In this document: positions 404 through 61,587 of the stretch, one piece after another
How positions within the stretch are numbered: position 1 is the first letter of the stretch
Layout of the letters: every line of letters begins with the position of its first letter
From: a virus
Strand: one strand, 5' to 3'
Length of the DNA: 64,000 nucleotides
IMG/VR virus record: IMGVR_UViG_3300045988_121005
Translations under genes and position numbers: made by a program
The notes under the pieces: generated by a model
Seen by the model: the letters and a program-made list of their open reading frames with translations, nothing else
What the model was told of the DNA's origin: nothing
Databases searched by the model: none

Positions 404-631
404 ATGGAAAATAAGGAAGATTACATTGGTTACGAAGACCAAGAGCTGTGTAACCAGTATTACAAAGAGGCTGAAGCCATGAGGCAAAAGCAGGACTGGC
501 CTCGGCTTAGGGCTGTCCCTGCTCCGGCTAAGGGAACGCCATCGCCCGGCTGGGGTCAGCTTGGACGTGGAAGTGATGTCCGTGTTAAGTACGTTAGCAT
601 CAATTCAGGATTGGGAGGGGATAGGTTATGA
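404..631 (+). CDS. Hypothetical protein (75 aa).
   Basis: ORF in a plus-strand operon; its stop overlaps the next start (ATGA). Confidence 0.4.
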   Translation: MENKEDYIGYEDQELCNQYYKEAEAMRQKQDWPRLRAVPAPAKGTPSPGWGQLGRGSDVRVKYVSINSGLGGDRL

Positions 632-843
632 CTGTAGAAGAATTGGCTAATAAAAGATACAGTGGCGAATTTGTTTTCATGCTTGGTCATTTGGAATGTG
701 TAACAAGATTTGTTTTTGAATGCTTTGATCCCAGACCTGATCACGAAGGTAAAAATACCTATATGGTTTCCTATTTTGATAAGCGCATCCGTAGAAGAGA
801 TGTGGTGGATGTACCGTGTTATATGAATATTTTGCTAAAATAA
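628..843 (+). CDS. Hypothetical protein (71 aa).
   Basis: ORF, translationally coupled to its neighbours. Confidence 0.4.
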   Translation: MTVEELANKRYSGEFVFMLGHLECVTRFVFECFDPRPDHEGKNTYMVSYFDKRIRRRDVVDVPCYMNILLK

Positions 844-1046
844 TGGAAACATTAATCTTAAATGTACCTGTATTTTCCGGTAAGATTATTTCTCCTACAT
901 GGATTAAGGCCGTAAGGGATTTCCAATCCAGATCGAAGGTAGAAAGAGACTTGTATTGTTCGGTTTGTGGATGTACAGGAGGGTGTAACTTATGCGATGA
1001 TGTAAGTAAATATAGGATTTCAGAACAACTAAAATATTATAGATAA
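816..1046 (+). CDS. Hypothetical Cys-rich small protein (76 aa).
   Basis: ORF with a CSVCGCTGGCNLCDD cluster; overlaps the upstream ORF. Confidence 0.4.
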   Translation: MLYEYFAKIMETLILNVPVFSGKIISPTWIKAVRDFQSRSKVERDLYCSVCGCTGGCNLCDDVSKYRISEQLKYYR

Positions 1047-1047
1047 C

Positions 1048-1683
1048 ATGGTTAGAATCGCATATTTCGGAACCGATGGCCACCCTGGTCATCACGTTAT
1101 TCCAATACGAGGTAAATTCACAGAAGAGGATATTAAGGTAATAGAATCTGTAGATTGTGATGATTTCTATAAGGTGTTTGACGTCATGCGTTTTAAGATA
1201 GCTGAGTTTAAAGGATGGACGATATTGGGAATCCCGGCAAGCTTAGACGATCATAGACCTGGAAGCAAAACCGTTATCTTCATAGAGGGTAAAGCTAACG
1301 AAGCTGATTTTATGGAAGTCATACAAGAGTACTCTTTTCTTAAAAATAAGGTAAAGAAACTTACCGAATTGTATCATGATGGAGAATGGCTTGCGACTGG
1401 TAAATTGAATCAAGATCCGCCTACTAACAAGGAGCGGTTTCAATTTACATTAGACAAGGATGATATTATTAACATGATTAGGGGAGTCATTTTAGATCCT
1501 TATTCTGATGTGGCGAATGAAATGGAGAAAATAGGATTGGGATTATCATCTGATTCTTCATATGAGGGTCCCACATGGTCTTGGTTTATTAACAAAGTAG
1601 AACTTTGGCAGAAGAATAATGTATGGGATAGTTTCTCCGCTGAGTTTTTGTGGGATTTGTATTGTAGGATAAAGAAAGTATAG
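1048..1683 (+). CDS. Hypothetical protein (211 aa).
   Basis: Long ORF; its start is 2 nt after the upstream stop. Confidence 0.6.
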   Translation: MVRIAYFGTDGHPGHHVIPIRGKFTEEDIKVIESVDCDDFYKVFDVMRFKIAEFKGWTILGIPASLDDHRPGSKTVIFIEGKANEADFMEVIQEYSFLKNKVKKLTELYHDGEWLATGKLNQDPPTNKERFQFTLDKDDIINMIRGVILDPYSDVANEMEKIGLGLSSDSSYEGPTWSWFINKVELWQKNNVWDSFSAEFLWDLYCRIKKV

Positions 1684-1694
1684 TAACAATTAAT

Positions 1695-2450
1695 TTGAAA
1701 CAAATCATGGGATTAGACGATTTTAAAAAAGATGTAATTAGAGTGATGACAAAAGAAGAGTTCGAATCAGCAATCAACGAAGATATTAAATTCGTTGAAG
1801 GAATTAAGCATTTTTTTAAACATGATGATGCTACGAGGGTAATGGAACACGTAAAGTCCGTGTTAGAAGCATCAGTGGACTACTGCTATCCGAATCATCC
1901 TGAACCTAAAGCAGAACCTGGAGACATGGGAGAGGTTTCTGATGGATACCATACTTTCAATGAATTGTATCGGTACCGCATGTTGTATAACGCTGCCTTC
2001 TTTAATCTATTAGCCAGAAATGGACAGGTTGAAGTTTGCAAATCAAGGAGACACAGCGACGGAGAAAAATGCTTCGGTTCTGATGATTGGTTTATTGTGA
2101 TGGCGATCCTACCTACCGGTCAGGTATCTAATCACTATGAAAGCAAATACTGGGATTTGTTTGATGTTCCTGAAAGAGAAACCGCTTTCGAATACGATGG
2201 CCATACACCAAATGAAGCTGCCGACAGACTTAAAAAGTATCTCAAACTGCCTCGTCGTGGCATGACATTCGAACAGGCTTTAGAACGGCTTAAATTAGGT
2301 CGTAAGATAAAAAGAATCGATTGGGGTAAAAAGTATATCTGTATGTTTGACGTAAATATATTGATGGTAGATACAGGTCAAAAAGTAGCATCAAATTGGA
2401 ATCCAACCGAACATGATATTATGTCTAATGACTGGGAGATTGCGGGATGA
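1695..2450 (+). CDS. Two-domain protein with an unknown N-terminal domain and a C-terminal DUF2829 (Tad2-like) domain.
   Basis: C-terminus reads MTFEQALERLKLGRKIKRIDWGKKYI...DIMSNDWEI. This matches the DUF2829 pattern MxFxEAL..LK.GKKI.R..W...DxxAxDWEi and is paralogous to ORF 61243..61587. Confidence 0.65.
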   Translation: MKQIMGLDDFKKDVIRVMTKEEFESAINEDIKFVEGIKHFFKHDDATRVMEHVKSVLEASVDYCYPNHPEPKAEPGDMGEVSDGYHTFNELYRYRMLYNAAFFNLLARNGQVEVCKSRRHSDGEKCFGSDDWFIVMAILPTGQVSNHYESKYWDLFDVPERETAFEYDGHTPNEAADRLKKYLKLPRRGMTFEQALERLKLGRKIKRIDWGKKYICMFDVNILMVDTGQKVASNWNPTEHDIMSNDWEIAG

Positions 2451-2722
2451 GTTTGTTTGTATGTTCAAAATGTGGCTGTATAGATAATACAGCCACATCA
2501 TATTACTGGGCTCTTATAAGACCTTGTAAGAATCGTATTTACGATAAGTCGCTAAAGGGATATGAAGGCAAGCATCTTTGTTCTGAATGTGCCGCTATTG
2601 AATATAGTAAGGAAGGCGAAGTGGTGGTAGTTCCTGGAACGTGGCACGGTAAGTTCAAGAAAGAATGGCCTACTGAAGAAGAAAAGAAACATATTGGTAA
2701 AAACGGAATATTAAATTTATAG
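2447..2722 (+). CDS. Hypothetical zinc-ribbon-like protein (91 aa).
   Basis: CSKCGC...CSEC cysteine pairs; 4-nt overlap with the upstream gene. Confidence 0.5.
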   Translation: MSLFVCSKCGCIDNTATSYYWALIRPCKNRIYDKSLKGYEGKHLCSECAAIEYSKEGEVVVVPGTWHGKFKKEWPTEEEKKHIGKNGILNL

Positions 2723-2724
2723 TC

Positions 2725-3030
2725 ATGTGCAATAAAGAAATCGTGATATGCGCTGCCATCTGGGTGCAGGACGGCAAGAAGCGTCCCTATCAGCCCACCA
2801 ATATACCATCCGGAACCGTGTTCTGTGGATTGAGACACCCCTCTATACTATCTCAACTTGCGGCATACGGTATAGCCCATAAAAACCGCAGTGTTCAAGG
2901 ATTTTTGACAAGCAAGAATCGGTTTTTAACAAGAGAGGAAGCGTCTGAACTTGTTAGAAACAATAATCAGGAGATGGTGGTAGATAGGAATGCCATTAGA
3001 GAACAGTTGTATTCAGAAGATTTGTATTAA
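2725..3030 (+). CDS. Hypothetical protein (101 aa).
   Basis: ORF in operon context. Confidence 0.5.
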   Translation: MCNKEIVICAAIWVQDGKKRPYQPTNIPSGTVFCGLRHPSILSQLAAYGIAHKNRSVQGFLTSKNRFLTREEASELVRNNNQEMVVDRNAIREQLYSEDLY

Positions 3031-3047
3031 CTAAAAAATAAAACAAT

Positions 3048-3398
3048 ATGGGATTTATAATCAGAAAGTCAATCATTTATAATATGATGGACGGCAATCA
3101 GTTAGAGTATGAATTTGACAACATAAATTTAGATCATATCACATTTAAAGGTAATGGTAAAGAACCTTTTTCATTTAACAGAGTCCTTGTTGAAAATTTA
3201 ATTGAGACATTTGAGACTATGCAAGATATATACTCTGATAATTACGGAATTAAGGTTTATACCGGTAATTGCATAATTCAACTGAATGTAAATCCAAAGA
3301 ACTTAAGTGAATCCTTTTTTGACGTATATGATAGAGATGGGATGAAATTGATATATAGCATACAAAATAGTATCTTGAAAGAAATGTTTGTCATATGA
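3048..3398 (+). CDS. Hypothetical protein (116 aa).
   Basis: ORF; 4-nt overlap with the next gene. Confidence 0.5.
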   Translation: MGFIIRKSIIYNMMDGNQLEYEFDNINLDHITFKGNGKEPFSFNRVLVENLIETFETMQDIYSDNYGIKVYTGNCIIQLNVNPKNLSESFFDVYDRDGMKLIYSIQNSILKEMFVI

Positions 3399-3712
3399 TT
3401 ACTAAACAAGATATACAAGCAGCAGCATCGTATATTTTCCGAAGCAGTTTTGTCTCGGAGGACCAGGCAAGGAAAGCAATGGTAAAAGCCGGCAATAACG
3501 CTACCAAGATCCTCGTCAAGACCTTTAGAGGCAAGTTGTTCAAGAAAGCTTTTGAAAGAGCCCGTAGAGGAAAGGATATCAGTTCTTTTGAAAGACAGGA
3601 AAAAGAAAGTGGTTTCAATTTTCTACATAATCCTAATAATGGTCGTATGCAAAGCGGTCATATTATAATAGATGGAATTGGTCTGTTTAAACAAATAATT
3701 CATGAAAGGTAA
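3395..3712 (+). CDS. Hypothetical basic protein (105 aa).
   Basis: ORF. Confidence 0.5.
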   Translation: MITKQDIQAAASYIFRSSFVSEDQARKAMVKAGNNATKILVKTFRGKLFKKAFERARRGKDISSFERQEKESGFNFLHNPNNGRMQSGHIIIDGIGLFKQIIHER

Positions 3713-3872
3713 AAAAGTTGATATTCGTTTAGGCAGAGGTCTGGCGAATCAGATTAAGATAAACAAAACCATTCCAGTGTCTCATAAACCAAAAGAAGAA
3801 CGTCGAATGATGTTTATTTGTGGTGATGATATTGCTTCTCTTATAAAGCGGTTTGAAAACGAATCAAAGTAA
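3702..3872 (+). CDS. Hypothetical small protein (about 56 aa; below the ORF-track cutoff).
   Basis: ATG at 3702. It ends just before a strong terminator. Confidence 0.3.
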   Translation: MKGKKVDIRLGRGLANQIKINKTIPVSHKPKEERRMMFICGDDIASLIKRFENESK

Positions 3873-3878
3873 TATAAA

Positions 3879-3908
3879 GTCGGACATGTGTCTTGTCCGA
3901 CTTTTTTT
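3879..3908 (+). terminator. Rho-independent terminator.
   Basis: Perfect 8-bp stem GTCGGACA/TGTCCGAC followed by T7. Confidence 0.7.
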
Positions 3909-54458: not shown

Positions 54459-54530
54459 GAGGCTTGTGGCGGAATCGAACCGCCCTACGAGGTTTTGCGG
54501 ACCCCTGACTAAACCACTCATCCAACAAGC
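54459..54530 (-). tRNA. tRNA-Cys(GCA): tRNA-Cys (GCA).
   Basis: 72 nt. Acceptor GGCUUGU/ACAAGCC, T-arm GGCGG-UUCGAUU-CCGCC, anticodon loop CCGCAAA. Confidence 0.7.
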
Positions 54531-54533
54531 CAT

Positions 54534-54607
54534 GTAGCCCAACCGGGAGTCGAACCCGGAACTAAAGTTTAGGAAACTTTTGTTATATCCGTTTAACTAC
54601 CAGGCTA
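54534..54607 (-). tRNA. tRNA-Arg(CCT): tRNA-Arg (CCT).
   Basis: T-arm CCGGG-UUCGACU-CCCGG. Anticodon stem AAAGU/ACUUU with loop UUCCUAA. The acceptor stem contains several G-U pairs. Confidence 0.6.
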
Positions 54608-54674
54608 TTTAATGTTTGCTATGTTCACACACCGCAAACACTGAGATAATTAACATTTCCACAAAAACTTATCG

Positions 54675-54745
54675 TTATCCAAGGAGGATTCGAACCTCCG
54701 ATAACAGAACCAAAATCTGTTGTGTTACCACTACACCATTGGACA
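54675..54745 (-). tRNA. tRNA-Gln(TTG): tRNA-Gln (TTG).
   Basis: D-arm GUGU/ACAC, anticodon stem ACAGA/UCUGU with loop UUUUGGU, T-arm GGAGG-UUCGAAU-CCUCC. Confidence 0.75.
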
Positions 54746-54746
54746 G

Positions 54747-54820
54747 TGGTCCCGGAGGGATTTGAACCCACGATCTTGCGGTTATGAGCCGCCTGCTTTC
54801 ACCACTAAGCTACAGGACCT
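54747..54820 (-). tRNA. tRNA-Met(CAT): tRNA-Met (CAT).
   Basis: Acceptor GGUCCUG/CGGGACC, D-arm GCUU/AAGC, anticodon loop CUCAUAA, T-loop UUCAAAU. Confidence 0.75.
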
Positions 54821-61242: not shown

Positions 61243-61587
61243 TTAACCAACTACCATCCAGTCATCAGCCAACATATCTGATTGAGAAGCTAACCATCCA
61301 TTTACAATATTATCGTTAGCATCTTTCATGCACAGATAAGAACAGAATTTAATCATGTTGGTTTCTGTTATGTCATAATAGTCGTTTACGTATTTTTTAA
61401 ACGAATCAGGCAATGACTTTACTCTATTAACTATCATATCAGTAGACAACCAATCTTCCGGTCGCTGGAATACGAACATACCTTTACCATTCCATCCTGA
61501 ACGAGCAATTAACTTACCTTCTTTTACTGCCTCTAAAGCTTCTCCAAATTTCATAACTGTATTTTTTTTATAAATTAAACTCTTCAA
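61243..61587 (-). CDS. DUF2829 family protein (Tad2-like candidate anti-Thoeris signal sponge).
   Basis: MKFGEALEAVKEGKLIARSGWNGKGMFVF...DMLADDWMVV. Confidence 0.65.
   Translation of the reverse strand: MKSLIYKKNTVMKFGEALEAVKEGKLIARSGWNGKGMFVFQRPEDWLSTDMIVNRVKSLPDSFKKYVNDYYDITETNMIKFCSYLCMKDANDNIVNGWLASQSDMLADDWMVVG

Follow-up and report, generated by a model that had tools for sequence, protein, structure and literature searches.

A WDGH domain fused to a miniaturised Tad2-like domain in a csAssE-Sib-like human-gut phage

The window, i.e., the whole stretch of 64,000 nucleotides that was analysed (IMG/VR virus record IMGVR_UViG_3300045988_121005), carries near one end an uninterrupted open reading frame on the plus strand (1695..2450), which encodes 251 residues when counted from TTG in the ORF list. 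An ATG four codons into the frame, at position 1707, is the more likely start and would give a protein of 247 residues, since both the ortholog WOZ57315.1 of phage csAssE-Sib and the closest metagenomic homologs begin at the equivalent ATG. csAssE-Sib, a 151-kb human-gut phage, is ~95% identical to the window across the window's first 8 kb, and its ortholog is annotated in GenBank as 'DUF2829' only. The fusion gene is a single, intact gene and belongs to a human-gut phage of the csAssE-Sib type. It is part of a co-directional run (404..3872) of about ten small, closely packed genes, and its stop codon (2448-2450) and the start codon of the following ORF overlap as ATGA. Terminator-like hairpins, which are consensus matches only, flank the run at 296-326 and 3876-3904, and downstream of it follows a 2,140-aa ORF, the equivalent of which in csAssE-Sib carries a structural-protein annotation. 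The coordinates of the features are collected in Table 1.

The two genes on the 3' side of the fusion gene are conserved partners in all relatives examined. Directly upstream, at 1048..1683 (plus strand), stands a 211-aa ORF (MVRIAYFGTDGHPGHH...) without a match in Pfam, PHROG, NCBIfam or PADLOC. This ORF is absent from the equivalent position of csAssE-Sib; in the metagenomic protein P0004 it is fused in frame to the WDGH gene, and in P0104, P0105 and P0391 it is joined via deletions to the 3' end of that gene. The window further contains a cluster of four tRNA genes on the minus strand (54459..54819; Cys-GCA, Arg-CCT, Gln-TTG and Met-CAT).

Table 1. Features of the WDGH-Tad2 locus, of the second Tad2 gene in the window and of related contigs
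Feature	Position	Strand	Evidence
Complete WDGH + Tad2-like fusion gene	1707..2450	+	ORF list, start/junction sequence, ortholog start, 1,187 homologs
Variable N-terminal region, aa 1-70, two predicted helices	1707..1916	+	AF2 model, alignment A1, dN/dS
WDGH domain PF25311, aa 71-183 (247-aa numbering)	1917..2255	+	Pfam match, alignment
Miniaturised Tad2-like domain PF11195, aa 185-247	2259..2447	+	Profile, fold
91-aa protein, two CxxC pairs	2447..2722	+	phrog_11861
101-aa protein	2725..3030	+	phrog_839; counterparts in related contigs: precomputed Pfam PF26092 (T4_Y16D)
Standalone canonical Tad2 gene, 114 aa from TTG; family match starts near M12	61243..61587	-	Pfam E=2.9e-24
TnpB-type insertions/chimeras	L009 5351..6208; L014 3394..4533; proteins P0046, P0120		

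Three parts make up the encoded protein: the N-terminus is helical and variable, the WDGH domain that follows is strongly constrained, and the C-terminal domain has a minimal Tad2 fold. The full-length AlphaFold2 monomer model has a pLDDT of 77, with values of 85-92 across the C-terminal domain and moderate to low values for the two N-terminal helices (residues 16-36 and 40-60). No Pfam family is matched by residues 1-78 in the whole-protein scan, and the NCBIfam and PADLOC scans of the fusion protein were likewise without a match. Homologs swap the N-terminal region for other modules, namely Bro-N, a small beta domain or longer helical inserts (alignment A1). The single 190-aa N-terminal domain described in the initial annotation resolves into this variable segment plus a WDGH domain of ~105 residues. 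Its conserved part is still without an assignable function, as had been stated, but it is not uncatalogued: it belongs to the Pfam family PF25311, 'WDGH', which comprises 3,755 representative clusters at 50% identity in an exhaustive HMMER scan.

The Pfam WDGH match covers residues 79-181 in the 251-aa numbering, with E=1.1e-36 and 125.4 bits against a cutoff of 27. The 44-sequence WDGH alignment has 19 invariant columns, with four His, three Asp, a Lys, two Arg, a Ser and a Thr among them, and all 19 columns of alignment A3 are present in the window protein by construction, this alignment having been built on its sequence. In the 247-aa numbering they are S78, D79, H82, T83, L87, Y88, R91, F99, K112, H116, F129, I130, G138, H143, W149, D164, G165, H166 and R174. 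These invariant residues span phages of Firmicutes, Actinobacteria, Proteobacteria and Bacteroidota. The motif HTFNELYRYR, singled out beforehand as conserved-looking, proved to be real: it opens the WDGH domain, and the 44 sequences show no variation at its H, T, L, Y and R. The family-name motif 'WDGH' reads YDGH in the window protein, and the same W to Y replacement is found in close relatives.

Members of the family (PHROGs 3392, 3769 and 21846) are encoded by phages of Listeria, Bacillus, Staphylococcus, Streptococcus, Lactococcus, Salmonella (P22-like), Klebsiella, Arthrobacter and others, and are uncharacterised phage or prophage proteins, such as gp128 of Listeria phage P100 and BTP1_006 of a Salmonella phage. 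Standalone relatives show 35-52% identity, and the HMM match is strong. In contrast to most members, which stand alone or carry other end modules, the window protein has a Tad2-like C-terminal partner. Modelled on its own, the WDGH domain reaches a pLDDT of 94.6 and a pTM of 0.84, and in the predicted topology a long helix leads into three strands, which are followed by a short helix, a loop and a final helix. No relative was found in the PDB, whether by sequence or by fold, and a search of the BFVD predicted structures returned nothing but other WDGH proteins. Standalone WDGH gave no match in the NCBIfam and PADLOC scans, six diverse WDGH domains showed no secondary Pfam family at E<=10, and the literature searched contained nothing on WDGH, PF25311 or a WDGH-Tad2 fusion.

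Several known enzyme classes suggested solely by motifs were considered for WDGH and rejected, namely 2H phosphoesterases (HxT motifs), calcineurin-like metallophosphatases (motifs), PD-(D/E)xK enzymes and proteins with the KxDG nucleotidyl-transferase motif; in each case the spacing, fold size or secondary structure does not fit, and no tool supports the assignment. An hhalign match between the WDGH and mini-Tad2 alignments was discounted as a sign of homology between the two domains, as it arises only from the Tad2 tail of a few of the WDGH rows.

The initial annotation placed the C-terminal domain in the DUF2829/Tad2 family, and this is supported both by the profile search and by the fold. 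The Pfam Tad2-like match covers residues 190-249 (251-aa numbering) and profile positions 1-72 of 73, with E=5.3e-11 and 43.3 bits against a cutoff of 25. The AlphaFold2 model superposes on two solved Tad2 proteins, and the core fold, consisting of an N-terminal helix, an antiparallel sheet and a short C-terminal helix, is present. This mini-Tad2 is composed of helix alpha1, five strands and helix alpha3, without the beta2-beta3 insertion, and it keeps W206, W231, D237 and D242-W243.

In the published Tad2 structures, gcADPR is clamped by two tryptophans, with the GWNG loop (in HgmTad2, W21/N22/G23) and the residues W87, L88, S90, T92 and D93 providing further contacts; binding is markedly reduced in the W21A/N22A mutant of HgmTad2. 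The V-shaped dimer is built by helix alpha2 in the beta2-beta3 insertion, and cyclic dinucleotides bind to the same insertion. In mini-Tad2, DWGKK stands in place of GWNGK: the tryptophan is kept, and N22 and G23 are lost through the changes N to G and G to K, with G, D or S found at the loop position among close relatives. The C-terminal contact motif W87-L88-x-S90-x-T92-D93 reads W-N-P-T-E-H-D, in which W and D are kept, the S to T change is conservative and T92 is replaced by H. Altogether, mini-Tad2 is identical at four of the twelve gcADPR contacts (W21, M76, W87 and D93 in HgmTad2 numbering); the changes comprise the conservative S90T and V84A, as well as T92H, T82K and A78D. The clamp tryptophans are 25 residues apart, compared to 48 in SPO1 Tad2 and 66 in HgmTad2. 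Furthermore, the window domain is without four residues (IVES) between beta2 and beta3 (2340..2350 region), which csAssE-Sib and several relatives possess; the length variants with spacings of 25 and 29 are both common in the homolog clusters.

With SPO1 Tad2 (gp34.65, PDB 8sme; PF11195, formerly DUF2829), mini-Tad2 shares the family and the core fold (alpha1, antiparallel sheet and alpha3), as well as both tryptophans of the clamp and, at the C-terminus, the motif W-x-P-[ST]-x-x-D...DW. SPO1 Tad2 is a free protein of ~90 residues with a GWNGK loop and an insertion that contains helix alpha2, whereas mini-Tad2 is the C-terminal domain of a 247-aa protein, has DWGKK and possesses neither the insertion nor helix alpha2. 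The pocket of SPO1 Tad2 is formed by loop b1-b2, b3-b4, b4 and a3 and, going by this structure description, the pocket-forming elements would fall outside the insertion that mini-Tad2 is missing. HgmTad2/AcrIIA7 (8kbi-8kbm, 9kzr) and SptTad2 (8wjd) are dual sponges for gcADPR and c-di-GMP/cGAMP; compared to them, mini-Tad2 is without the entire 41-residue insertion that forms the cyclic-dinucleotide pocket. ModTad2 (PDB 9eib), a His-ADPR sponge directed against type II Thoeris, has GWNG, W-T-P-S-V-S-D and the insertion, all of which are missing from mini-Tad2. A Tad2 domain with neither insertion nor GWNG is without a studied counterpart among the solved structures retrieved. The label 'sponge', given earlier to the fused copy, is unproven, as the domain lacks both the GWNG loop of all solved Tad2 proteins and the whole beta2-beta3 insertion. 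A functional Tad2 sponge would be expected to assemble as a homotetramer with pockets between its protomers, to bind its ligand in the nanomolar range and to protect phages from Thoeris. The ligands of the Tad2 family are gcADPR, His-ADPR or cyclic dinucleotides, with specificity shifting from clade to clade.

A second, standalone Tad2 gene is found in the window, and the two Tad2-like copies do sit at opposite ends of it and on opposite strands, as first described. Against PDB sequences, the standalone protein gives E=9e-43 for 8kbi, E=1.6e-43 for 9kzr and E=1.5e-31 for SptTad2, and it is identical to HgmTad2 at 66 of 102 positions (65%). It keeps nine of the twelve gcADPR contacts and eight of the nine cyclic-dinucleotide contacts, with the changes A78D, T82N, T92S and T71C. 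Judged by its sequence, it is a close relative of HgmTad2/AcrIIA7 of the canonical dual-sponge type, and this identity, together with the contacts kept, suggests that the phage already has a canonical dual sponge of known type. In a direct comparison, BLASTP gives 26% identity across the last 38 residues (E=4e-5). The paralogy proposed at the outset holds insofar as both are Tad2-like; the direct similarity is weak, and the two copies are distantly related within the family and no recent duplicates.

The fusion recurs widely. Most of the top 120 among 1,187 homologs of the fusion protein carry both Pfam domains, and several fusion clusters count from hundreds to thousands of members (up to 2,378), the contigs being 90-165 kb long. 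At 90% identity, ~100 clusters that combine WDGH with a Tad2-like domain are found in related gut phages. The architecture, which had been thought unusual, is thus common in this phage group, although it represents a minority among WDGH proteins overall, a Tad2-like domain being found in five of the 150 nearest WDGH representatives. In ~15 of the ~100 fusion clusters the Tad2 domain is fully canonical, with GWNG, WxPSxSD, a 60-residue spacing and the long insertion, which links WDGH to a bona fide sponge-type domain. The other ~85 carry reduced forms (DWGKK, GWKNE, KWNDK, etc.) with spacings of 25-40 residues, and the clamp tryptophans and D93 are invariant across all of them.

Selection acts differently on the three parts of the protein. 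In comparisons with three orthologs, dN/dS amounts to 0.05-0.08 for WDGH, 0.24-0.58 for the N-terminal leader and 0.21-0.71 for mini-Tad2, with the csAssE-Sib comparison uninformative for the Tad2 part, which has zero synonymous changes there. WDGH is under strong constraint, and mini-Tad2 evolves fast.

On some related contigs, mini-Tad2 is called as a separate gene of 62-66 residues, and a mini-Tad2 profile search retrieved 25 short proteins, all from the same phage group, including split and deleted variants. As demonstrated by DNA alignment, the contigs L015 and L017 carry, towards the 3' end of the WDGH part, different 1-nt deletions in short homopolymers (AAA to AA; CC to C), which shift the frame into a TGA overlapping the ATG of 'MTFE...'. 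In L014 and L016, deletions remove the WDGH part entirely, and relatives without WDGH retain an open mini-Tad2 frame. In the window, an alternative plus-strand frame within the WDGH gene (2137..2265) holds a 42-aa ORF (…MKLPTDLKSISNCLVVA) that is not an independent gene here; it corresponds to the frame read by the frameshifted L015, L017 and L014 before the TGA that overlaps the mini-Tad2 ATG.

Since two different homopolymer deletions are involved, the split forms are derived and may be assembly errors. Taken with the 4-aa deletion of the window Tad2 domain relative to csAssE-Sib, the frameshifts and deletions could be regarded as signs of a decaying gene, or of an ORF that is an artefactual join of two genes. 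This is highly improbable and largely refuted: the window ORF is uninterrupted, the fused form is by far the majority (clusters of up to 2,378 members versus 3-77 for the split products), the splits map to two separate deletions, and the dN/dS of 0.05 indicates that WDGH is maintained by selection. The window's fused ORF represents the intact majority form, and the split forms are rare derivatives or possibly assembly errors. The reading of the ORF as a genuine fusion is borne out by the recurrence of the fused form in the alignment of homologs and by the DNA comparison; a pair of genes mis-joined through a frameshift at the domain boundary, put forward initially as what could overturn it, was not found, as the frameshifted splits that do exist derive from the fused form.

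The 150 nearest WDGH representatives share 60-96% identity with the query in the WDGH core, while their flanks are shuffled and form 49 N-terminal and 43 C-terminal extension clusters. Bro-N, crAss001_48, a GNAT acetyltransferase protein, sigma-70 region 4, Myb, YccV and FaeA occur once each as partners, and Bro-N, sigma-70 region 4, Myb, YccV and FaeA are of DNA-binding type. Many WDGH proteins (P0244-P0303) are flanked on both sides by repeated helical linkers ('WSEEDE...', 'WLEKQGEQK', 'QPEVDLEKE'), modules that appear to be shuffled cassettes. The genomic settings are similarly diverse. The WDGH gene lies among small genes annotated without function in Listeria P100 and an Arthrobacter phage, and in a run of small genes flanked by primase genes in a Staphylococcus phage. 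In the P22-like phage BTP1 (L002 2854..3414, BTP1_006) it lies between coat and tail-hub genes, and in the pneumococcal phage phiARI0285-2 (L007 2399..2794) between portal and minor-capsid genes; such a moron-like position inside head-morphogenesis modules is unusual for an early anti-defence gene.

This promiscuity of partners, the loss of GWNG and of the insertion, and the relaxed constraint on mini-Tad2 all support a reading in which WDGH is a functional core unrelated to immune signals, perhaps one that targets nucleic acids or serves nucleotide metabolism or host takeover, with mini-Tad2 being a degenerate dimerisation or adaptor domain, one of many interchangeable end modules. This explanation is a realistic possibility and the main rival to the counter-defence reading given below. 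The ~15 fusion clusters that retain a canonical Tad2 with every motif intact are hard to explain in this way, and the invariance of the clamp tryptophans and D93 in all reduced forms argues against it, as does the survival of the mini-Tad2 frame alone where WDGH has been deleted.

In some relatives, IS605-type OrfB/TnpB genes (PF01385, Cas12f1-like TNB) are found a few genes downstream of the WDGH-Tad2 gene. Chimeric proteins in which TnpB fragments are joined to WDGH also occur, and P0070 combines WDGH with an RRXRR domain. The WDGH-Tad2 locus looks like a hotspot for mobile insertions.

A different kind of neighbour is present in two Bacillus phages: in Nate (L006 2348..3548, gp134-gp135) a standalone WDGH gene is followed by a directly overlapping NADAR gene, and in Tsamsa (L018 1702..3432, gp135-gp137) the NADAR gene follows with an HNH endonuclease gene in between. 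The NADAR genes match PF08719 with E~1e-39. This adjacency is a weak second link of WDGH to ADP-ribose-related functions and, as Nate and Tsamsa are related, the association counts as one lineage.

Taking into account these observations, it is tentatively proposed, with a probability of roughly 0.4, that the fusion protein is a two-module counter-defence protein. Mini-Tad2 would pair through helix alpha1, in the manner of the non-dimeric protomers in Tad2 tetramers, and the paired protomers would enclose a Trp-clamped pocket that accommodates a nucleotide immune signal, ADP-ribose-derived or otherwise. The putative pocket may have been retained or retuned, and its ligand is probably neither gcADPR nor c-di-GMP, which would already be covered by the standalone Tad2 of the phage. 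WDGH would add a second activity on a nucleotide-type molecule, its invariant His/Asp/Lys/Arg set pointing to catalysis or tight ligand binding, and the fusion would thus place capture and this second activity on one polypeptide. The best arguments for such a counter-defence role are the fusions of WDGH to canonical Tad2, the invariant clamp residues in the reduced forms and the fact that Tad2 clades change their ligand. It is also consistent with the NADAR neighbour in Nate and Tsamsa (weakly), with a division of labour with the canonical HgmTad2-like gene, with the constraint on WDGH and its invariant residues, with the clamp tryptophans, D93 and an S/T at position 90 being kept in the fused copy, with pocket-forming elements that would fall outside the missing insertion, and with a mini-Tad2 frame that stays open without WDGH. 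The degradation of mini-Tad2 counts against it, given that GWNG and alpha2 are lost, four of twelve contacts are identical, the loop varies and dN/dS lies at 0.2-0.7. So does the behaviour of WDGH, which occurs mostly without Tad2, is located in head-gene modules and is deleted or frameshifted in some relatives.

The more specific proposal that WDGH is itself an unrecognised counter-defence module, a small enzyme or sponge whose fold is without a solved relative and which destroys or traps an ADP-ribose-derived or cyclic-nucleotide signal, is rather unlikely. Were it true, the repeated fusion to Tad2 domains, canonical in some phages and miniaturised in this one, would give a first hint at what a family of more than 3,700 clusters, found in phages of at least four bacterial phyla, does. 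As a further alternative, the Tad2-like domain could be a sensor through which a host immune signal switches a WDGH effector on or off for the benefit of the phage, i.e., it would regulate and not sequester. That one polypeptide carries both a ligand-binding fold and a domain of high conservation and probable catalytic function fits this idea, and so does the separate canonical sponge in the same genome; with no precedent in the Tad2 literature searched, and with most WDGH proteins lacking any such domain, it is considered very unlikely.

Part of the locus is already known: both domains are catalogued, the standalone copy is of HgmTad2 type, and fusions of the two domains are common among these phages. 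The WDGH-Tad2 architecture and WDGH itself are uncharacterised so far. Tad2 sponges are an established means by which phages silence Thoeris and CBASS signalling, and the recurrent WDGH-Tad2 fusion leads to the testable hypothesis that WDGH acts on nucleotide immune signals. The 63-aa mini-Tad2, in turn, probes the minimal size of the fold, and whether a domain stripped of the GWNG loop and of the dimerising insertion can keep or change its ligand binding. Should both ideas fail, the locus would be another mosaic accessory gene of a gut phage. Collectively, the fusion is a useful starting point for working out what a very large orphan family of phage proteins does, and not a surprising new system.
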